From contig JBJXEM010000004.1 of the NCBI GenBank assembly GCA_046154225.1, positions 102-64,101 of the forward strand: DNA of 64,000 nt, in the 5' to 3' direction. Shown here piece by piece: positions 153 through 60,587 of the stretch; position 1 is the stretch's first letter; the number at the start of each line of letters is the position of its first letter. The DNA is from Rickettsiales bacterium (GTDB lineage: Bacteria; Pseudomonadota; Alphaproteobacteria; Rickettsiales; UBA3002). Below the pieces are notes generated by a model, which made no database searches, was not told the DNA's origin, and was given only the letters and a program-made list of their open reading frames with translations. The translations under genes were made by a program, and so were the position numbers.

Positions 153-160
153 ATTTTATT

Positions 161-526
161 CTGTCATCCCGGTTTGCGCAGCAACACCGGGATCTAAAAT
201 AAGCTGGAATATAAATCGGCCCATGCAGAATTCATTTCTTTGATGGCGGTTATTTTTTTGGCGCGAGTCCATCGCTTGATTGATTTCTCGCGTCGGATTG
301 CCTGTTCAACTTCGTCGTGTATTTCATAATATACAAGTAGTTTCACGTGGTATTTTTTAGTGAATCCGTCTGCCATCCCGCGTTTATGTTGGTAAATCCT
401 GCCTATCAGATCGCTGGTGACCCCTACATAAAATACACCGTCTTTTTTTGAGGCGAGAATGTAGGTGTAGTAGGCCATCATGGCTCCCCAGATCCCGGCG
501 CTCACTACGTTCGGCCGGGATGACAG
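161..526 (-). mobile_element. GIY-YIG cassette 1: nuclease ORF between two hairpins with perfect 12-bp terminal inverted repeats
   Basis: The left end is CTGTCATCCCGG (161-172) and the right end is CCGGGATGACAG (515-526). Each end is part of a hairpin (161-194 and 491-526). The element fills almost the whole hom-aminotransferase spacer. Confidence 0.55.
194..481 (-). CDS. GIY-YIG nuclease family protein (UPF0213/COG2827-like)
   Basis: The ORF contains YYTYIL...GVFYVGVTSDL..R..QHK...FTKKY...LVYYE...AIRREK.IKRW, the GIY-YIG/URI domain signature. The start is taken at MMAYY, with GGGGAG upstream. Confidence 0.85.
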   Translation of the reverse strand: MMAYYTYILASKKDGVFYVGVTSDLIGRIYQHKRGMADGFTKKYHVKLLVYYEIHDEVEQAIRREKSIKRWTRAKKITAIKEMNSAWADLYSSLF

Positions 527-532
527 TGGTGG

Positions 533-4731: not shown

Positions 4732-4756
4732 GTTTCGCACGAGCCTCTAGGCGTAC

Positions 4757-4876
4757 GTCATCCCGAATTCATTTCGGGATCCATCAAAGCGCCGTCTGGC
4801 GCGGAACAACCTATTACAGCAATTATACCGTCGCTGATCGCGCCTTGGATGGATCCTGAAACAAGTTCAGGATGAC
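4757..4876. repeat. double-hairpin GTCAT...ATGAC element (E1), no gene
   Basis: The left hairpin is GTCATCCCGAATTCATTTCGGGATCC and the right hairpin is GGATCCTGAAACAAGTTCAGGATGAC. The ends are near-identical to the element at 13412-13526. Confidence 0.8.
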
Positions 4877-4892
4877 GCGGTGGCGAGATCAT

Positions 4893-6605: not shown

Positions 6606-6630
6606 TGGGCAAGCTGCTCCCAAAAACTCC

Positions 6631-6774
6631 GTCATTGCGAGGCATGAACAAACCATTCACTTGCACAAACAGTGAAAACCCAAAGCAATCCATCGGCAAC
6701 ACGGCGTTGCAGATGGATTGCTTCGGCTTTTCAATCTTGATTGGGCGGATAGCCTGTTCATGCCTCGCAATGAC
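6631..6774. repeat. double-ended GTCAT...ATGAC element (E6), no gene
   Basis: GTCATTGCGAGGCATGAACA at the left is inverted as TGTTCATGCCTCGCAATGAC at the right. There is an internal hairpin AAGCAATCCATC...GATGGATTGCTT. Confidence 0.75.
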
Positions 6775-6827
6775 GACGCTTGTGTAGAAATGTTAGCCAA
6801 TCACCAAGGATAGCGATAAGAGGAATT

Positions 6828-7871
6828 ATGACCCAATCCATCTCCACCGTCATCCTAGGCGCATCGGGCTATACCGGTGCGGAATTGTTGCGGCTGCTGC
6901 GTGGGCACCCGGCGTTTAATATCGTGGCGCTGACGGGCGACAGCCAAGCGGGAAAACCCATCGAGCACGTCTATCCACATTTGCGCGGACAGAATTTGCC
7001 AACCCTCGTGAAGCACACGGAAGTCGACTTTACCGATGTGCAACTCGTGTTCTGCTGCCTGCCGCATGGCACTACGCAGGAGATTATCGCGGGCCTGCCT
7101 GCACATGTGCGCATTGTCGACCTGTCAGCCGATTTCCGGCTGCACGATGTGGCCGAATACGCCGCATGGTATGGCCACGAACACCGCGCGCCCCAGCTTC
7201 AGAATGACGCGGTGTACGGGCTTACTGAATTGAACAGAGAACGGATCAAGGCGTCACGCCTTGTGGCGAACCCTGGCTGTTACCCGACCAGCGTGCTGTT
7301 GCCCTTGGTACCGCTTACGCACGCCAAACTCATTGATCCCACCTGCTTGTTTATTGACTCACAATCCGGCGTCTCAGGCGCGGGCCGTAGCGTGAAGCAG
7401 GAGCTGTTATTCACCGAGCTCGAAGGCGGCGTTTCGGCCTACGGCATCGGCCACCACCGACACATGGCCGAGATGGAACAGGAGTTACGCGCCGCCAGCG
7501 GCGTGGCCGACCTCACCGTGTCGTTTACACCGCATTTGGTGCCCATCACCCGCGGCATGCTCAGCACGATTCATGTACGCCTTAGCGAAGGCGTGAGCGC
7601 CGACGATGCCCGCGCGCACCTGACACAACGCTTCGCGAACGAACCGTTTGTCACTGTCCTCACCACCGGTGCGGCCAGCACCCATCAGGTACGTGGCACC
7701 AACCAATGCGTAATGTCGGCGCATGTCGGGCGCACTGCGCGCGAACTGATACTCGTCTCGGTCATCGACAATCTCGTGAAGGGAGCATCCGGCCAAGCCC
7801 TGCAAAATGCGAATCTGATGTTCGGCTTACCCGAGACCACGAACCTCGAACTCACCGCGATTTTTCCGTGA
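6828..7871 (+). CDS. argC: N-acetyl-gamma-glutamyl-phosphate reductase
   Basis: The sequence contains ILGASGYTGAELLRLL and VANPGCYPT (active-site Cys). ATG 6828 is preceded by AAGAGGA. Confidence 0.9.
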   Translation: MTQSISTVILGASGYTGAELLRLLRGHPAFNIVALTGDSQAGKPIEHVYPHLRGQNLPTLVKHTEVDFTDVQLVFCCLPHGTTQEIIAGLPAHVRIVDLSADFRLHDVAEYAAWYGHEHRAPQLQNDAVYGLTELNRERIKASRLVANPGCYPTSVLLPLVPLTHAKLIDPTCLFIDSQSGVSGAGRSVKQELLFTELEGGVSAYGIGHHRHMAEMEQELRAASGVADLTVSFTPHLVPITRGMLSTIHVRLSEGVSADDARAHLTQRFANEPFVTVLTTGAASTHQVRGTNQCVMSAHVGRTARELILVSVIDNLVKGASGQALQNANLMFGLPETTNLELTAIFP

Positions 7872-7944
7872 GTGGTGAGTCGTGAGTTGTGAGTGGTGAA
7901 GAAATGCGATAATCACTACACACCACACACAACGCACCACTCAC
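7868..7944. repeat. inverted heptanucleotide arrays (H1, unit GTGAGTN)
   Basis: GTGAGTG GTGAGTC GTGAGTT GTGAGTG GTGAAGA faces CACTACA CACCACA CACAACG CACCACT CAC. The outer 10 bp are perfectly complementary and 25 of 31 positions pair overall. The array overlaps the argC stop and abuts the next ATG. Confidence 0.85.
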
Positions 7945-8463
7945 ATGCATCAGCCACTCATCCTCCCCTATCACGGCATTCTGCCCACCATCCATCCGGA
8001 TGCGTGGATCGCGCCGGGCGCGGTGGTGATTGGCGATGTGCATATCGGCGCGTTTTCCAATGTGTGGTTCGGCTGCGTGATTCGCGGTGATGTCAACACC
8101 ATCCGCATCGGCGAACGGACGAATATCCAAGACGGCACTATCGTGCATGTCACCCGTAAAACGGGGCCCACCAGCATCGGTTCCGGCATCACTATCGGCC
8201 ATCAGGCCCTCATTCACGCAGCCACGTTGATGGACGATTGTTTCATCGGCATGGGCGCGACCATCATCGACGGGGTGGTGGTGGAATCCGGCGCTTTTGT
8301 AGCCGCAGGGGCCGTCGTCACCCCCCATAAACGCGTGCCCACGGGCCAAATGTGGGGCGGCAACCCCGCTAAATACATGCGCGACCTGAAGCCCGAGGAA
8401 GCCGCGTTCATCTCCGTCAGCGCCCAGAATTATGTTGATTTATCTAGGGAATATAGGGTATAG
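7945..8463 (+). CDS. gamma-class carbonic anhydrase family protein (hexapeptide-repeat, YrdA/PaaY-like)
   Basis: The sequence reads IHPDAWIAPGAVVIGDVHIG..SNVWFGCVIRGD...IRIGERTNIQDG, a left-handed beta-helix pattern. Confidence 0.85.
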   Translation: MHQPLILPYHGILPTIHPDAWIAPGAVVIGDVHIGAFSNVWFGCVIRGDVNTIRIGERTNIQDGTIVHVTRKTGPTSIGSGITIGHQALIHAATLMDDCFIGMGATIIDGVVVESGAFVAAGAVVTPHKRVPTGQMWGGNPAKYMRDLKPEEAAFISVSAQNYVDLSREYRV

Positions 8464-8563
8464 GGTTTAGGGTATAGGGTATATAGTATAGGGTATTATT
8501 TATATAGTTTGGCCTCAATATAAAGCCATTTCTAAACCCTAAACCCTAAACCCTAACCCCTAT
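8445..8563. repeat. inverted heptanucleotide arrays (H2, unit T(A/T)TAGGG / CCCTAAA)
   Basis: Six units TATAGGG/TTTAGGG lie at 8452-8496. They face TAAACCC x3 plus TAACCCC (8533-8563) across an AT-rich spacer. Confidence 0.85.
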
Positions 8564-13346: not shown

Positions 13347-13411
13347 GGCACTGATTGAGCGGAATTACCGCGCGATTGCAAGTAATGAACGCACTATCTA
13401 TGGGCACACCC

Positions 13412-13526
13412 GTCATCCTGAATTTATTTCAGGATCCATCGAAGCGCCGTCTGGCGCTGATAGTCTTCTAATAGGTTATTCGGCAAAGACTTGCCGGGAT
13501 GGATCCTGAAACAAGTTCAGGATGAC
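13412..13526. repeat. double-hairpin GTCAT...ATGAC element (E2), no gene
   Basis: GTCATCCTGAATTTATTTCAGGATCC ... GGATCCTGAAACAAGTTCAGGATGAC. The ends match E1 and the centre differs. Confidence 0.8.
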
Positions 13527-13582
13527 GCCGAAGCATAGTTTTTCCCCAAGAAACTGCCGTTTAGCACCCGTTATGTTTACTA

Positions 13583-14451: not shown

Positions 14452-14540
14452 TGCCATCCCCGCGCAGGCGGGGATCCAGCCCTAAGCGTATCTCGCGGCG
14501 CCGACGCGCCGTACTGGATTCCCGCCTGCGCGGGAATGAC
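14452..14540. repeat. double-hairpin element (E3), no gene
   Basis: CCATCCCCGCGCAGGCGGGGATCC ... GGATTCCCGCCTGCGCGGGAATGAC. The right hairpin has the form ATTCCC-N8-GGGAAT. Confidence 0.75.
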
Positions 14541-14548
14541 AAAAAACG

Positions 14549-21903: not shown

Positions 21904-21997
21904 GTGGTGAGTAGTGGGTAGTGGGTTGTGAAGCACAAAACCTCATGCTAGGCATTCCTCACCATCCACCATCCACCACTCACCACCCACCACTCAC
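21904..21997. repeat. inverted heptanucleotide arrays (H4, unit GTGGTGA / NNCCACC)
   Basis: GTGGTGA GTAGTGG GTAGTGG GTTGTGA (21904-21933) faces CCTCACC ATCCACC ATCCACC ACTCACC ACCCACC ACTCAC (21957-21997). Of 30 positions, 24 are complementary. The array ends at the gpmI ATG. Confidence 0.85.
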
Positions 21998-28009: not shown

Positions 28010-28846
28010 GCCGACACCCGACACCCGATACCCGACACCCGCCTCGGCTTTAGCCTCGTCGAACTCTCCATTGTTTTGGTCATTCTTGGCCTGCTGACGG
28101 GCGGCATCCTCGCCGGCCAGTCGCTCATCCGCGCGGCACAACTACGATCTGTCAGTACAGAGTATTCACGTTATTACACTGCCACACAGACCTTCCGCGA
28201 TAAATACATGGCCCTTCCTGGAGATATGACAAACGCTACGAAGTTTTGGGGGTTACAAGCTGGGTGTGCTGGTAACTGCCTTACGGTTCCATCAGGTACC
28301 GAGACATTCGACGGGAATGGCGACGGCACGATTCAGTGCATAGGTTGCGATTTAAGCACTACTGGTAATGAAACCTATCGTTTTTGGCAGCAACTTGCGA
28401 ATGCGGGGCTTATTGAGGGCCAATATACAGGCGTACCTGCCGCCGCCCCGGCTTTACCAGAATGGGGGTGGGCATCAAAACTTGGTGTCAATGTCCCAAC
28501 AAGTCGCTTCTCCAACTCGGGATGGAGCATTTTTTGGATCGCCCCCAAGGATATCTCTGATGTTAATTGGTTTGAAGGTGATTACGGTAATATGATGATT
28601 TTTGGTGGTGCGGACAGTACTGGACTGACATGGGTTCCGATGCTTACTCCTGAAGATGCATGGAACATCGATACCAAGTTAGATGATGGAAAGCCTGCAA
28701 CTGGCCGGGTCGTGACCAATGAAAATCAAGGAGGCCAGTGTAGTGATTTAGCGGCCTCTGCTGCTGCATCGCTTGCCGCATCACAATATAAACTGACCAA
28801 TGCTACTATCAGCTGCACACTCGTAATGAAAAGTTCCGCAAATTAA
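28010..28846 (+). CDS. type IV pilin / T2SS pseudopilin-like protein (prepilin N-terminal methylation motif); no in-frame canonical start as sequenced
   Basis: G|FSLVELSIVLVILGLLTGGILAGQSLI at 28046 onward is the class III signal and hydrophobic helix. The only ATGs (27988 and 28006) are in another frame and terminate at TAG 28051-53. GC is lower than in neighbouring genes. Confidence 0.7.
   Translation, partial: ADTRHPIPDTRLGFSLVELSIVLVILGLLTGGILAGQSLIRAAQLRSVSTEYSRYYTATQTFRDKYMALPGDMTNATKFWGLQAGCAGNCLTVPSGTETFDGNGDGTIQCIGCDLSTTGNETYRFWQQLANAGLIEGQYTGVPAAAPALPEWGWASKLGVNVPTSRFSNSGWSIFWIAPKDISDVNWFEGDYGNMMIFGGADSTGLTWVPMLTPEDAWNIDTKLDDGKPATGRVVTNENQGGQCSDLAASAAASLAASQYKLTNATISCTLVMKSSAN
28011..28045 (+). 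repeat. heptanucleotide tandem array (H5, CCGACAC x2, CCGATAC, CCGACAC, degenerate CCGCCTC) inside the pilin leader region
   Basis: Read directly from the sequence. It lies between ATG 28006 and the GFSLVE motif. Confidence 0.85.
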
Positions 28847-28938
28847 AATGCGTATCGTCAAAATGCGATTTCTACAGCCGAAGAATTGAACGTTAACGGC
28901 TCTGGCCCTACGCCCGAATCATCGTGCTTATGGTACTT

Positions 28939-29292
28939 TGTCATCCCGGCGCATGCCGGGATCCGCGCCCCATTAAATTATTTGCTCGTAGAGGTCGACC
29001 CAGTCCGGATTCATCCGGCAGATGGCCTGATATTTGATCGCACGACTCCACCGTTTAATGAGTTTTTCACGGCGTATTGCTTCGGTGATATCGGCATGCA
29101 CTTCGTAATAGACGAGGGTTTTGATACCGTATTTCTTGGTGAAACCTTGAACCAGCCCCTGTTTATGCTCATAGACACGACGCACTAAGTCATTCGTCAC
29201 GCCCACATAGAACGTGCCGTTGCGGCCTGTCGTTAAGATATAAACATAGTAGTTCATTTCAGGCGCGGGCCCCGGCATGCGCCGGGGTGACA
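28939..29292 (-). mobile_element. GIY-YIG cassette 2: nuclease ORF between hairpin-forming terminal inverted repeats
   Basis: TGTCATCCCGGCGCATGCCGGG (28939-28960) matches the reverse complement of 29271-29292 (TGTCACCCCGGCGCATGCCGGG) at 21 of 22 positions. Confidence 0.6.
28973..29257 (-). CDS. GIY-YIG nuclease family protein (second copy)
   Basis: MNYYVYILTTGRNGTFYVGVTNDL..R..EHK...FTKKY...LVYYE...AIRREK.IKRW. By hand alignment, 53 of 92 residues are identical to the copy at 194-481. Confidence 0.85.
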   Translation of the reverse strand: MNYYVYILTTGRNGTFYVGVTNDLVRRVYEHKQGLVQGFTKKYGIKTLVYYEVHADITEAIRREKLIKRWSRAIKYQAICRMNPDWVDLYEQII

Positions 29293-29337
29293 GTTGGTGT
29301 TACAACGACAAACGCATGCTCTTTTTCTTTGGCGCAG

Positions 29338-29361
29338 ACCCCGGCATCCGCCGGGGTGACA
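29338..29361. repeat. solo hairpin of the cassette-2 type
   Basis: ACCCCGGCATCCGCCGGGGTGACA, about 45 bp beyond the right end of cassette 2. Confidence 0.7.
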
Positions 29362-29380
29362 TTTTCTTTTTCAACTAACC

Positions 29381-30286
29381 TTAAGCCCGAATCATCGTGC
29401 TCGCGCCGTGTTCGGTGAAGGTTTCAATGAGCAATACATGAGGGATGCGGCCGTCGAGGATGTGGGCTTGGCTCACGCCTGCTTTCAGGGCATGCACGCA
29501 GGTTTCGACCTTGGGGATCATACCGCCGGTGATGGTGCCGTCGGCAAGCAGCGCGTCGATTTCCGCCGCATCAATCGCGCTGATGAGTTGTTTGTCTTTG
29601 GTTAAAATCCCCGCCACGTCGGTCAGCATCATCAGCTTGGTCGCACCCAATGCGCTCGCGATGGCGCCGGCGGCGGTGTCGGCGTTGATATTATAAGTTT
29701 CGCCGTTCGGGCCCATGCCGATAGGGGCGATGACGGGGATCATGCCGCTCGCCATAATGTTTTGAATCGCCGCGGGGTTGATTTTGGTGGGCTCGCCCAC
29801 GAAGCCTAAATCAAGCACACGCTCGATGTTGCTGTCGGGGTCCTTCTTGGTGCGGCGTAATTGCTGCGCCTCGATGAGGTTGCCGTCCTTGCCGGAAATA
29901 CCAATCGCGGTGCCACCCATTTGGTTGATGGCGGTGACGATTTGTTTGTTGATGCTGCCAGATAATACCATCTCAACAATGTCGACCGCTTCTTCATCCG
30001 TCACGCGCAGTCCGTCGATAAATTCGGATTTGATTTTCAGCCGCTCGAGCATCGCGCCGATTTGCGGTCCGCCACCATGAACCACCACCGGGTTGATGCC
30101 CACGGTTTTTAAAATCACGATGTCGCGCGCGAAAGTTTCCGCCGTGCGGTCATTCCCCATGGCGTTGCCGCCGTATTTGATGACGAACGTGTGGCCCGCA
30201 AACCGCTGGATATAGGGCAGCGCTTCGCTCACCGTTTTGGCGGTGCGCAGTAGCAGTTCCTTGGTTTTTATTGTCTTTATTTCCAT
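29381..30286 (-). CDS. argB: acetylglutamate kinase
   Basis: The sequence contains ALPYIQRF.GHTFVIKYGGNAM and VVHGGGPQI. Confidence 0.95.
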   Translation of the reverse strand: MEIKTIKTKELLLRTAKTVSEALPYIQRFAGHTFVIKYGGNAMGNDRTAETFARDIVILKTVGINPVVVHGGGPQIGAMLERLKIKSEFIDGLRVTDEEAVDIVEMVLSGSINKQIVTAINQMGGTAIGISGKDGNLIEAQQLRRTKKDPDSNIERVLDLGFVGEPTKINPAAIQNIMASGMIPVIAPIGMGPNGETYNINADTAAGAIASALGATKLMMLTDVAGILTKDKQLISAIDAAEIDALLADGTITGGMIPKVETCVHALKAGVSQAHILDGRIPHVLLIETFTEHGASTMIRA

Positions 30287-30292
30287 GAGGGT

Positions 30293-30362
30293 AGCCTACA
30301 GCTTACAGCCCACAGCTTACAGCTTAGCACAAGGGTGCTGTTGGCTGTCGGCTGTTGGCTAC
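30293..30362. repeat. inverted heptanucleotide arrays (H6, unit AGCYTAC / NGGCTGT)
   Basis: AGCCTAC AGCTTAC AGCCCAC AGCTTAC AGCTTAG CAC, then aagg, then GTGCTGT TGGCTGT CGGCTGT TGGCTAC. It overlaps the engB stop and ends 6 nt from the argB start. Confidence 0.8.
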
Positions 30363-42374: not shown

Positions 42375-42423
42375 CAGCAGATAGGCCGCAGATGAGAGCT
42401 TTAGAAACTATGCTTATCACACT

Positions 42424-42513
42424 GTCATGCCAGCGAATGCTGGCATCCAGCTTCTTTAAAAAATCTTGCGATGCAGACGCATCGCACTGGATGCCAGCAT
42501 TCGCTGGCATGAC
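42424..42513. repeat. double-hairpin GTCAT...ATGAC element (E5), no gene
   Basis: GTCATGCCAGCGAATGCTGGCATCC ... GGATGCCAGCATTCGCTGGCATGAC, with a central hairpin TGCGATGCagacGCATCGCA. Confidence 0.8.
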
Positions 42514-42568
42514 AAAACTGGTTTTTCTGACAACGCTTAAACCTGAAACCTGTAACCTATAGGCTCTC

Positions 42569-43128: not shown

Positions 43129-44244
43129 ATGACCCAGACAACCGACCATCGCTTCCTTCTCCACGCGCAACGCATGGCCAGCCGCGGCCTTGGCCGCACA
43201 TGGCCCAATCCATCGGTCGGCTGCGTGCTAGTGAAAAACGGAGTGGTGATTGCCGTCGCCCACACGGCGGACGGCGGCCGCCCCCATGCGGAAACGCAGA
43301 CGCTCGCACTCGCGGGCGATGCGGCACGCGGGGCCACGGCTTATGTCACGCTTGAACCCTGCGCCCATCACGGCCACACCCCGCCTTGCGCGCAGGCGCT
43401 GATTGATGCAGGTGTGACGCGGGTCGTGTTTGGGTACGAGGACCCCGACCTGCGTGTTAACGGTCGCGGCGCGGCGATGCTAAAAGCAGCGGGTGTGGAA
43501 ACTACACCACCCACCACCCACCACTCACCACTCACATCTCTCTATCGCGGTTTCTTCCGCCGCGTGCGCCATGGCTTGCCGGAAGTGTCGCTGAAAATCG
43601 CGACCTCGCGCGATAACCATATTGCCGACCCTGCTGGAGTGCATCGCTGGCTGACCGGCGAACAAGCGCGCGCCCATGGGCACATGCTGCGTGCCACGCA
43701 TGATGCGGTGGTCACCGGCATCGGCACCGTGCTCGCTGACGACCCGCTTTACACCGTGCGGTTACTGGGCATCACGCGCCCCAACCTCATACGCGTTGTC
43801 GTCGATCGCAATCTGCAACTGCCGCTACATTGCCAACTCGTGCGCACGGCGGAACAACATCCGCTCTGGTTGCTCACCACCGCCGAGGCGGTGGAGCACA
43901 ACGCCAGCCACGCCACCGAACTTCGCGAACGCGGCGTGGTGCTCCAGGTGGTGGAAACCTTGGCTGACCCGCGCGCCATCCTCACCTTACTCGCAGCACA
44001 AGGCCTCAACCGTGTGCTGGTTGAAGCCGGGGCAGCACTCACGGCGGCATTCATGGGGGCGCGCTGTGTCGACACGCTGCATTGGTACCGCGCGCCGATG
44101 CGTTTTGGAAATACTGGCCAAGCCGCGCCGATTGCACTAGATACGGCGCTGCAAGCGGTTCAGCCTTTGGGTTTGGTGCATCACCAGCCCCTCGGCTCCG
44201 ATATGTATGAACGTTACGAGTTAAAATCATGTTTACCGGACTAA
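43129..44244 (+). CDS. ribD: bifunctional diaminohydroxyphosphoribosylaminopyrimidine deaminase / 5-amino-6-(5-phosphoribosylamino)uracil reductase
   Basis: It has the deaminase zinc motifs HAE and PCxxxxxxPPC (TLEPCAHHGHTPPC), followed by a reductase domain. Confidence 0.92.
   Translation: MTQTTDHRFLLHAQRMASRGLGRTWPNPSVGCVLVKNGVVIAVAHTADGGRPHAETQTLALAGDAARGATAYVTLEPCAHHGHTPPCAQALIDAGVTRVVFGYEDPDLRVNGRGAAMLKAAGVETTPPTTHHSPLTSLYRGFFRRVRHGLPEVSLKIATSRDNHIADPAGVHRWLTGEQARAHGHMLRATHDAVVTGIGTVLADDPLYTVRLLGITRPNLIRVVVDRNLQLPLHCQLVRTAEQHPLWLLTTAEAVEHNASHATELRERGVVLQVVETLADPRAILTLLAAQGLNRVLVEAGAALTAAFMGARCVDTLHWYRAPMRFGNTGQAAPIALDTALQAVQPLGLVHHQPLGSDMYERYELKSCLPD
43505..43535 (+). repeat. heptanucleotide array (H8, CACCACC x2, CACCACT x2) inside the ribD coding sequence
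   Basis: It belongs to the same unit family as the right arm of H4. It is translated in frame as TPPTTHHSPLT. Confidence 0.75.
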
Positions 44245-59038: not shown

Positions 59039-60526
59039 ATGATTACCGTCAGCTTTACCCCTGCCACCACCGCCAAAGCCGGAAGCGGCGTTGCCCTTTT
59101 GGTCGGCGACGACCTCACGTTCGACAAAGCCGCACTCGGTGGCGCGAGCGCCTACGTGACGCAAGCCATCGCCGCCGCGCATTTCACCGGCAAAAAAGGC
59201 GCGACGCTTAACCTCATTTACCCCGGAAAAACGGCGCAGCATTTGTTCGTCATCGGCACGGGCCCTGCGAAAAACTTCACATCACTCATCGCCGAAGAAA
59301 GCGGTGCGCTGGCGGTTGCTGCAGCCTTTGCAGCAAAAGTGACGCATCTCGACATCGTCGCCCACGCCGGAAAAGCCAAGCTGGATGGGGCAGAACTGGC
59401 CGCCCATCTGGGTTATGGCGCACGCCTGCGCGCCTACCGTTTCGACAAATACCGCACCAAAGAAAAAGCCGAAGACAAACCGAAATTGAAAAGCGTGTCA
59501 GTCATCAGCCGCGCCGCCGATAAAGCAAAAAAACTGTTCACGCCGCTTTTGGGCATCGCCGATTCGGTGCATTTCAGCCGTGATCTGGTGAGCGAACCGG
59601 CAAACATCATCTACCCTGAAACCCTTGCCGCCGAGTGCAAAAAACTCGCCAAGCTCGGGGTGAAAGTCGAAGTGCTGGGCGAAGCGGCGATGAAAAAACT
59701 TGGGCTAGGGGCGCTGCTCGGCGTCGGCCAAGGAAGCGTCCGCGAAAGCCAACTCGTGGTGATGCAATGGTACGGCGGCAAAGCCGGGCAAAAACCCGTG
59801 GCACTCGTAGGCAAAGGCGTCACGTTCGACACGGGCGGCATCAGCATCAAACCCGCAAACGGCATGGAGGAAATGAAGTGGGACATGGGGGGTTCGGCCG
59901 CTGTCATCGGCACCATGCGCGCACTCGCCGCGCGTAACGCAAAAGTGAATGTGGTCGGCATCGTCGGCCTCGTGGAAAACATGCCCGACGGCAACGCACA
60001 ACGCCCGGGCGATGTGGTGAAATCCATGTCCGGCCAAACCATCGAAGTCATCAATACCGATGCGGAAGGCCGCCTCGTGCTGGCCGATGCATTGTGGTAC
60101 TGCCAAGACCGTTTCAAGCCGCAATGCATGGTCGATCTCGCCACGCTGACCGGCGCGATTATTGTCTCGCTCGGTTCGCACCGCGCAGGCCTGTTCAGCA
60201 ATAGCGACGCGATGGCCAAAGCGCTCGACGACGCGGGCGAACGTACGGGTGAACGCTTATGGCGCATGCCACTCGGGCCCGAGTACGACAAAATGATCAA
60301 TTGCGACATCGCCGACATGCAGAATGTGGGCGAAGGCCGCGAAGCAGGCTCAACGACCGCCGCACAATTCCTGCAGCGTTTCGTGAACGACACCCCGTGG
60401 GTGCATCTCGACATCGCAGGCGTAGCGTGGGCCAACAAACCGCATTCGCCACTCTACCCCAAGGGAGCGGTAGGCTGGGGCGTGCGGTTGCTGAATGATT
60501 GGATTAAAACTAACTATGAAAAATAG
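59039..60526 (+). CDS. pepA: leucyl aminopeptidase (M17)
   Basis: The sequence contains VGKGVTFDTGGISIKP and NTDAEGRLVLADAL. It is divergent from lptFG, as in many proteobacteria. Confidence 0.93.
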   Translation: MITVSFTPATTAKAGSGVALLVGDDLTFDKAALGGASAYVTQAIAAAHFTGKKGATLNLIYPGKTAQHLFVIGTGPAKNFTSLIAEESGALAVAAAFAAKVTHLDIVAHAGKAKLDGAELAAHLGYGARLRAYRFDKYRTKEKAEDKPKLKSVSVISRAADKAKKLFTPLLGIADSVHFSRDLVSEPANIIYPETLAAECKKLAKLGVKVEVLGEAAMKKLGLGALLGVGQGSVRESQLVVMQWYGGKAGQKPVALVGKGVTFDTGGISIKPANGMEEMKWDMGGSAAVIGTMRALAARNAKVNVVGIVGLVENMPDGNAQRPGDVVKSMSGQTIEVINTDAEGRLVLADALWYCQDRFKPQCMVDLATLTGAIIVSLGSHRAGLFSNSDAMAKALDDAGERTGERLWRMPLGPEYDKMINCDIADMQNVGEGREAGSTTAAQFLQRFVNDTPWVHLDIAGVAWANKPHSPLYPKGAVGWGVRLLNDWIKTNYEK

Positions 60527-60587
60527 CCGACAGCCGACAGCCGACAGCCTAGAGCTGTTAGCTGTTAGCTGTCAGCTCTAGGCTGAC
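60524..60587. repeat. inverted heptanucleotide arrays (H9, unit AGCCGAC / GCTGTTA)
   Basis: AGCCGAC x3 and AGCCTAG, then GCTGTTA GCTGTTA GCTGTCA. There is a perfect 13-bp stem, CAGCCTAGAGCTG (60544-56) with CAGCTCTAGGCTG (60573-85). The array overlaps the pepA stop and abuts the holC ATG. Confidence 0.85.

Follow-up and report, generated by a model that had tools for sequence, protein, structure and literature searches.

Can a gene for a very small GIY-YIG nuclease and the DNA hairpins that bracket it form a working pair, and has such a pair moved through genomes as a unit? The question is raised by a stretch of 64,000 nt (hereafter the window, meaning the whole stretch that was analysed) from GCA_046154225.1, contig JBJXEM010000004.1, positions 102-64,101 of the forward strand. 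Its source is a metagenome-assembled genome (MAG) that NCBI labels "Rickettsiales bacterium", an uncultured alphaproteobacterium. Two open reading frames (ORFs) of the window, which we call ssn1 and ssn2, encode GIY-YIG proteins and lie between inverted hairpins. Our analysis indicates that both are very probably site-specific single-stranded DNA (ssDNA) endonucleases of the Ssn family (SsnA type), and that they very probably recognise the hairpins around them and also gene-free hairpin doublets in other parts of the window, repeats known as Ssn-related motifs (SRM).

Two nuclease genes framed by inverted hairpins

The first gene, ssn1 (194-478, minus strand), encodes 94 aa plus stop, a single GIY-YIG domain of the Ssn family (Pfam PF01541, E=2.8e-16) with Y6, Y17 and E64 conserved. 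It sits in a 380-nt segment (153-532, minus strand), the ssn1 cassette, between the stop codon of an aminotransferase gene (533-535) and the start codon of hom (150-152), the latter being named by synteny with relatives whose gene in the same place has Homoserine_dh Pfam domains. The perfect 12-nt terminal inverted repeat that the earlier note had described here is confirmed, with arms at 161-172 (CTGTCATCCCGG) and 515-526 (CCGGGATGACAG). These arms form the outer halves of two hairpins, one at 163-193 (plus strand) and one at 492-524 (minus strand). The 3'-flank hairpin, an SRM of the CGTC type annotated at 162-194, reads TGTC-ATCCCGGT-loop of 12 nt-ACCGGGAT-C on the plus strand, and the 5'-flank SRM hairpin, annotated at 491-525, reads TGTC-ATCCCGGC-loop of 14 nt-GCCGGGAT-C on the minus strand; in both cases the tag points outward. 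Folded as ssDNA, the hairpin at 163-193 reaches -10.8 kcal/mol, with z=-4.7 relative to shuffled sequence. It ends at 193 and so touches the ssn1 stop codon (194-196), as the note had said. The other hairpin does lie upstream of the ribosome-binding site and start; where the note gave a spacing of about 10 nt, the distance is 2 nt to the GGGGAG ribosome-binding site and 13 nt to the start codon ATG.

The second gene, ssn2 (28973-29257, minus strand), encodes another 94-aa Ssn-family GIY-YIG nuclease (Pfam GIY-YIG match, E=8e-16), 57% identical to ssn1, and repeats the layout that had been proposed for it, standing between inverted hairpins. On the plus strand its 3'-flank SRM hairpin (28940-28962, annotated at 28939-28966) reads TGTC-ATCCCGGC-gcat-GCCGGGAT-CCGC, and on the minus strand its 5'-flank SRM hairpin (29270-29291, annotated at 29265-29292) reads TGTC-A-CCCCGGC-gcat-GCCGGGG-CCCGC. 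Both fit the published SRM pattern, and together they make up a 31-nt inverted repeat of 90%. The right end of ssn2 is duplicated in tandem over 69 nt, and this duplication includes an extra solo SRM hairpin (29338-29360, annotated to 29361, minus strand; TGTC-ACCCCGGC-ggat-GCCGGGGT-C). In both cassettes the hairpin-gene-hairpin unit is compact, at ~350-360 nt.

Relationship to the Ssn family

The Ssn family and its NTS/SRM motif were defined by Chenal et al. (Nat Commun, March 2025; PMC11893778). N. meningitidis SsnA, a 94-aa single-domain GIY-YIG protein (cd10448, GIY-YIG_unchar_3), binds the oriented dRS3 hairpin (NTS) only as ssDNA and cuts a few nucleotides upstream of it, for which Y6, Y17 and E64 are required (PMC11893778). 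According to the same study, the three nucleotides on the 5' side of the palindrome are important for cleavage and the C immediately 3' of it for binding, the identity and length of the loop are tolerated, and double-stranded DNA (dsDNA) is not cut by family members. Binding and cleavage were demonstrated biochemically for four homologues, and in Neisseria SsnA restricts incoming NTS-bearing ssDNA during transformation (PMC11893778).

As SsnA reference we used a 94-aa N. gonorrhoeae orthologue and not N. meningitidis NMV_0044 itself. This ORF was reached by tblastn against PLSDB (7.3 Gb) with E=1e-25, within NZ_CP119140.1 1881675-1883144 (L163), on a 2.17-Mb N. gonorrhoeae chromosome filed as a plasmid in that database; we take it for the SsnA orthologue because it has 94 aa, contains Y6, Y17 and E64, and carries NTS on its flanks. 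In pairwise BLASTP the ssn1 protein is 50% identical to it (E=2e-36) and the ssn2 protein 49% identical (E=1e-34), both without gaps over the full length; the homology criterion used for the family is E < 1e-10 to Neisseria SsnA (PMC11893778). The positions of Y6, Y17 and E64 coincide between N. gonorrhoeae SsnA and both window proteins, and the three residues are invariant in an alignment of 26 homologues.

Both ORFs are single-domain proteins in which the Pfam GIY-YIG match covers residues 3-77. An AlphaFold2 model likewise predicts one compact GIY-YIG domain (pLDDT 95), whose nearest solved structures are UPF0213 and Slx1; sequence and fold searches of the PDB returned these distant relatives only and no solved Ssn structure. 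NCBIfam contains no specific model for the ssn proteins, and phage sequences gave just four weak matches of 35-40% identity. Homology to SsnA, a single domain of ~94 aa and the catalytic residues Y6, Y17 and E64 are thus found in both ssn1 and ssn2, as are SRM hairpins on both sides; those flanking ssn1 agree in tag, in stem length (8 bp) and in the 3' C, but have long loops.

The nomination of a GIY-YIG nuclease as the partner enzyme of the hairpin repeats, made in the earlier note from the window alone, agrees with the published biochemistry (PMC11893778), with these family traits and with the survey of 80 loci described below. Systems of this kind, of which the earlier note knew no described case, are not new: Ssn nucleases and their repeats were reported in 2025 (PMC11893778), and the hairpins had been catalogued in 2013 (PMC3733652).

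Hairpin repeats elsewhere in the window

The 2013 catalogue by Di Nocera, De Gregorio and Rocco (PMC3733652) describes CGTC-tagged repetitive extragenic palindromes (REPs), including dRS3 of Neisseria and RPE-4 and RPE-6 of Rickettsia. These have a CGTC or TGTC tag, a stem that is 8-9 bp long and opens with AT (first pairs A-T and T-A), a loop of 4-5 nt and a CCA tail; they occur mostly as head-to-head dimers and are prevalent in alphaproteobacteria (PMC3733652). They apparently lacked a dedicated transposase and were not linked in that work to a GIY-YIG gene (PMC3733652). The SRM is the same thing as these CGTC-tagged REPs or dRS3/NTS.

Hairpins of the window share a common frame, consisting of (C/T)GTC, then A(T/C), a stem (8 bp at the ssn flanks), a loop, the closing stem and a C. 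The GTC tag is present in 13 of the 14 hairpin arms, the remaining one having GCC, and the 3' C in all 14. Between elements the stems vary by compensatory changes (ATCCCGGC, ATCCTGAA, ATGCCAGC, ATTCCCGC and ATCCCCGC). GTCAYCCCGG was observed five times in the window where 0.33 occurrences were expected, and the published SRM search pattern, which allows a loop of up to ~5 nt plus flexible positions (PMC11893778), gave six matches against 0.37 expected. Both ssn2 flanks are among these matches.

Five gene-free doublets are present, all of them intergenic and with outward tags. E1 (4756-4877; CGTC-ATCCCGAA / ATCCTGAA, loop of 5) is located downstream of phaC, E2 (13411-13527; CGTC-ATCCTGAA, loop of 5) between a histidine kinase gene and rplU, and E3 (42423-42514; TGTC-ATGCCAGC-gaat), in which the 28-nt arms are perfect, downstream of glyA. 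E4 (14452-14541) combines a right arm TGTCATTCCCGCGCAGGCGGGAATCCAG with a left arm bearing the degenerate tag TGCC, and E5 (6630-6775) has the frame CGTC-ATTGC ... GCAAT-CC and arms with long loops. The right arm of E4 matches the Neisseria NTS consensus (taken from PMC11893778) at 27 of 28 positions. Gene-free elements had been noticed before and do exist, although the six double-hairpin elements then counted amount to five doublets plus the solo hairpin near ssn2.

Although their loci are unrelated, E1 and E2 are copies of each other by homology, and the identity between them stops exactly at the CGTC..GACG termini. A compensatory stem pair distinguishes their left arms (4757-4780 and 13412-13435), with ATCCCGAA/TTCGGGAT in one and ATCCTGAA/TTCAGGAT in the other, a difference that would fit either selection for pairing or conversion of the arms by one another. 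In E5 the "loops" extend over ~45 nt and the single arms are not predicted to fold strongly, the whole element being a long palindrome; it may represent a hairpin repeat with an insertion in the loop.

Hairpins around homologous genes

A profile scan of GTDB representative genomes yielded 596 relatives, the best match having 62% identity, and the best 80 were kept. These 80 loci span Proteobacteria, Omnitrophota, candidate-phyla-radiation lineages, Dehalococcoidia, Cyanobacteria, Planctomycetes and others. Hairpins were scored when they were perfect, outward-tagged and within 200 nt of the gene. By this measure 49 of the 80 loci have outward-tagged hairpins on both sides (0.18 expected from the same loci) and a further 21 on one side only, giving 70 with a hairpin on at least one side (~7.4 expected) and ten without. 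Hairpin-framed genes are real and far beyond chance. The earlier note had let its idea fail if most GIY-YIG ORFs of the full genome were unflanked; among these 80 loci, most homologues are flanked. In the published survey, SRM were near 71% of Ssn homologues and on both sides of 42%, with SRMs enriched around ssn genes (PMC11893778).

The arrangement is regular as well. Left and right stems of the same locus differ by 0.83 mismatches on average compared with 2.45 after permutation, and none of 5000 permutations reached the observed value. Outward tags exceed inward ones both upstream (45 vs 14) and downstream (49 vs 18) of the genes, and the 3' hairpin is situated at a median of 13 nt from the stop codon. 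The length from GTC to GAC is ~350-375 nt in 22 of 41 loci, the window cassettes measuring 362 and 352 nt. Co-variation of stem and nuclease, a check proposed by the earlier note, is seen between protein and stem distances (Mantel r=0.29, reached in 0 of 2000 permutations), in a correlation that is confounded by the shared ancestry of the loci.

Among the 80 loci, the closest relative of ssn2 is found in a Candidatus Uhrbacteria MAG (L055), a candidate-phyla-radiation genome, with 64% identity and the same flanking stem ATCCCGGC; enzymes may thus have passed from phylum to phylum together with their hairpins. In the 12 nt just outside the GTC tags G is scarce, with 6-18% at positions -12 to -5 (flanks of L001-L080), and at several loci the inverted repeat runs a few bases past the tag.

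Insertion history of the two cassettes

The gene order phaC-X-aminotransferase-hom-glpX is conserved in five relatives (84-87% aa identity), and in all five the aminotransferase stop codon overlaps or abuts the hom start codon (ATGA, TAATG, TAGtATG). Since these relatives have abutting or overlapping stop and start codons, the ssn1 cassette appears as the derived state: judging by this comparison, it was inserted secondarily between two translationally coupled genes. The aminotransferase beside ssn1 has many close relatives. In one of them (L161; identity 97% at the aa and 84.6% at the nt level) the same hairpin follows right after the TAA, and then the contig ends. Being shared with a relative at 84.6% nt identity, the ssn1 insertion is old and stable, and ssn1 has been inherited vertically since.

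At the ssn2 locus, the closest argB relative (L081, 92% aa identity) is without ssn2, and a convergent neighbour gene lies within 27 nt of its argB stop. In the window, copies of the argB 3' end with its stop codon stand on either side of the ssn2 element plus the extra hairpin (28929-29378), as a direct repeat in which 21 of 23 nt are identical. The proximal copy (29379-29401) is the in-frame argB 3' end, and the distal copy (28906-28928) encodes ..STMIRA*. Neither ssn1 nor any of 41 homologous cassettes shows anything comparable to this 23-nt duplication, and target-site duplications beyond chance were not found in the 41. A 256-aa ORF at 28076-28846 with a prepilin-type N-terminus (GFSLVELSIVLVILGLL...) and no Pfam match is, like ssn2, absent downstream of argB in L081. 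Because this pseudopilin-like ORF and the duplicated argB 3' end also differ, the comparison of filled and empty sites is less clean for ssn2 than for ssn1. Strict vertical inheritance without any empty site would have spoken against a mobile origin in the terms of the earlier note; empty orthologous sites are present for both cassettes.

Predicted cleavage and expression

From what has been shown for homologues, the following course of events can be proposed for the window. When the DNA is single-stranded, the palindrome would fold into a hairpin, to which the 94-aa enzyme would bind, the C just 3' of the stem being required for this. Using Mg2+ and Y6, Y17 and E64, the enzyme would then hydrolyse the same strand ~3 nt 5' of the (C/T)GTC tag, and dsDNA, RNA and the complementary strand would stay uncut. 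Because the tags point outward, the predicted cuts fall just outside each cassette and on opposite strands; at ssn1 they would lie ~4 nt after the aminotransferase stop codon and ~6 nt before the hom start codon.

No sigma-70-like promoter was found inside either cassette. A role of the flanking hairpins as terminators was considered and rejected, as they have no T-runs on the gene strand. Since the cassette holds no promoter-like site and its hairpins are not terminator-like, ssn1 is probably co-transcribed by read-through from the aminotransferase-hom operon.

GIY-YIG enzymes are hydrolytic nucleases and not transposases that make covalent intermediates. Because their chemistry is hydrolysis rather than strand transfer, any mobility of the cassettes would need functions of host repair or replication.

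Alternative explanations

Several observations weigh against reading the two ORFs as Ssn nucleases and the hairpins as their recognition repeats. For the stem classes of the window, at least five in all, there are only two ssn genes. Although the hairpin at 492-524 has a perfect 8-bp stem, the minimum free energy of the 48-nt stretch is close to that of shuffled sequences (z=-1.0). With 12 and 14 nt, the loops of the ssn1 hairpins lie beyond the published SRM pattern, which misses the ssn1 flanks for this reason. The Mantel correlation, as stated, is confounded by relatedness. Finally, the nearest NTS at N. gonorrhoeae ssnA are tagged towards the gene, whereas in the window cassettes and in most of the 80 loci the tags point outward; since the nearest NTS around Neisseria ssnA point inward, the cut geometry predicted here differs from that in Neisseria.

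The Ssn reading can be extended, without being replaced, by supposing that cassettes and doublets form a family of transposable elements, in which Ssn is the mobilising enzyme, the cassette is the autonomous copy, the doublets are non-autonomous, REPIN-like passengers, and movement proceeds via single-stranded intermediates at replication forks. We regard this as possible but doubtful. Several findings argue for it: both cassettes are missing at orthologous sites in relatives; the 21/23-nt target duplication brackets ssn2; the homology of E1 and E2, at unrelated loci, ends exactly at CGTC..GACG; GTC-to-GAC lengths cluster at ~350-375 nt in 22 of 41 loci; and the occurrence of the closest ssn2 homologue with the same stem in Candidatus Uhrbacteria suggests horizontal spread. 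The authors of the Ssn study raised the same hypothesis, likening NTS-ssnA-NTS to an insertion sequence, drawing the comparison with IS200/IS605 and REP/BIME, and proposing domestication, with mobility itself only hypothesised (PMC11893778).

Against transposition stands enzymology: GIY-YIG enzymes are established as hydrolases of DNA, and strand transfer is not known for them. Moreover, the predicted cuts fall on opposite strands, unlike those of IS200/IS605, and no target-site duplications beyond chance were found in the 41 cassettes. The presence of ssn1 in a relative at 84.6% nt identity marks it as old and stable, and paralogues that are 57% identical are not recent copies. In the literature we found no report of transposition and no follow-up on Ssn mobility. 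The autonomous/non-autonomous pair proposed in the earlier note fares unevenly: the enzyme-repeat partnership and the empty sites stand, but the transposon part is still hypothetical.

A related reading, which we consider unlikely, holds that Ssn cassettes and doublets constitute a real class of mobile elements driven by a hydrolytic ssDNA nuclease instead of a transposase. Such elements would insert at gene boundaries, in the present case right at the junction of a stop codon with an overlapping start codon, without regular target duplication, and would thereafter be inherited vertically. If this were true, CGTC-type REPs would gain the mobilising enzyme that they have long lacked, and a new mechanism of insertion would be implied.

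It is very improbable that the hairpins are generic REP elements, acting as mRNA stabilisers, terminators or supercoiling sites without any link to the nuclease, and that the genes merely landed in repeat-rich spacers. Many intergenic regions of the window do contain such REPs that enclose no gene, and 19% of SRM-rich genomes are without ssn (PMC11893778). A chance association, however, does not produce outward hairpins on both sides of 49 of 80 genes where 0.18 are expected, nor the fixed placement of the 3' hairpin at a median of 13 nt from the stop codon. The two stems of a locus agree with each other, and stem sequence varies together with the protein; the hairpins have no T-runs on the gene strand, and for four homologues there is biochemical evidence of both binding and cleavage (PMC11893778).

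Free-standing GIY-YIG homing endonucleases of the I-TevI type, which cut dsDNA at empty alleles and spread by double-strand-break repair, would explain the GIY-YIG domain, the presence/absence polymorphism at both sites and the weak matches of ssn2 to T5orf172 and to a group I intron endonuclease model, but this reading is scarcely credible and we reject it on size (94 aa, with no DNA-binding domain) and on the TIGR01453 score (25.5 bits for ssn2 against a cutoff of 56, and no match for ssn1), the more so as family members leave dsDNA uncut (PMC11893778), phage homologues are weak only and a hairpin-flanked layout is not typical of homing endonuclease genes.

Other repeats in the window

Short intergenic tandem arrays of heptamers are found at 7868-7944, 8445-8562, 21960-21997, 28011-28041, 30293-30360, 43505-43535 and 60525-60577, with the units GTGAGTG, TATAGGG, CTAAACC (telomere-like), CACCACC, CCGACAC, AGCTTAC, GCTGTTG, AGCCGAC and AGCTGTT. 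The arrays are often paired, two facing each other, and are unrelated to the CGTC hairpins; we take them to resemble the STRR heptamer repeats of cyanobacteria. Rfam and tRNA scans of the 64-kb window gave no matches.

Comparison with known systems

Among solved structures, UPF0213, YhbQ and Slx1 (PDB 1zg2, 1ywl, 4xlg) share the minimal GIY-YIG fold and come nearest to the window proteins, but only at E=1e-5 and 31% identity, and Slx1 differs further by an extra RING domain and by acting on branched DNA. We know of no association of UPF0213/YhbQ/Slx1-type proteins with hairpin repeats.

IS200/IS605 elements resemble the cassettes in having subterminal hairpins that are recognised as ssDNA and in making no target-site duplications. 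Both of their hairpins and cuts, however, are on the same strand and their enzyme is a HUH transposase, whereas the window hairpins are inverted and the enzyme is GIY-YIG; the cassettes are therefore not members of IS200/IS605.

There is also a likeness to the RAYT/REP-REPIN system (TnpA_REP, HUH-Y1). In both, a low-copy, largely vertically inherited gene lies between inverted copies of a hairpin, the repeat is dispersed as intergenic doublets, and the enzyme recognises an ssDNA hairpin with an unpaired 5' tag (GTAG for RAYT, CGTC here). The analogy with RAYT and REP elements drawn in the earlier note is one that the Ssn authors also make, alongside IS200/IS605 and REP/BIME (PMC11893778). Nevertheless, RAYT is a HUH tyrosine transposase with a covalent intermediate, as opposed to a hydrolytic GIY-YIG enzyme of unrelated fold. 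The flanked genes being GIY-YIG, we do not count them as RAYT/REPIN, and a crude six-frame motif scan of the window found no ORF with an HUH...Y motif. A literature search joining GIY-YIG with REPIN, RAYT or repetitive extragenic palindromic found nothing.

With the CGTC-tagged REPs (PMC3733652) the window repeats share the tag, 8-bp stems beginning with AT, loops of 4-5 nt, the CCA tail, head-to-head dimers and an alphaproteobacterial host. Tag, stem, loop and tail all conform in 10 of the 14 window arms, the exceptions being AC in place of AT at 29270 and 29338, a single TGCC tag, and the long loops of E5 and of the hairpins around ssn1. These long loops go beyond the range described for CGTC-tagged REPs.

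Because the partnership of enzyme and repeat was published in 2025, our finding opens no new category. What it offers is a clean comparison of filled and empty orthologous sites for an Ssn cassette, that is, evidence for the insertion that had only been hypothesised (PMC11893778), as well as a possible footprint in the 21/23-nt target duplication around ssn2. Two divergent nucleases and at least five stem classes within 64 kb also make the window convenient for studying how enzymes and hairpins pair, at a time when Ssn enzymes are being proposed as programmable cutters of ssDNA.

In conclusion, the closest counterpart is the Ssn/NTS system itself (PMC11893778). Common to both are a 94-aa GIY-YIG protein with Y6, Y17 and E64, at 49-50% identity to the Neisseria orthologue; a gene framed by inverted hairpins in which a (C/T)GTC tag precedes an 8-bp stem that is followed by a 3' C; and further repeat copies in intergenic regions, one of which in the window agrees in 27 of 28 positions with the Neisseria NTS consensus. 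The window differs in its alphaproteobacterial host, in the 12- and 14-nt loops of the ssn1 hairpins, in its stem classes, at least five in number, and in harbouring two paralogues within 29 kb.

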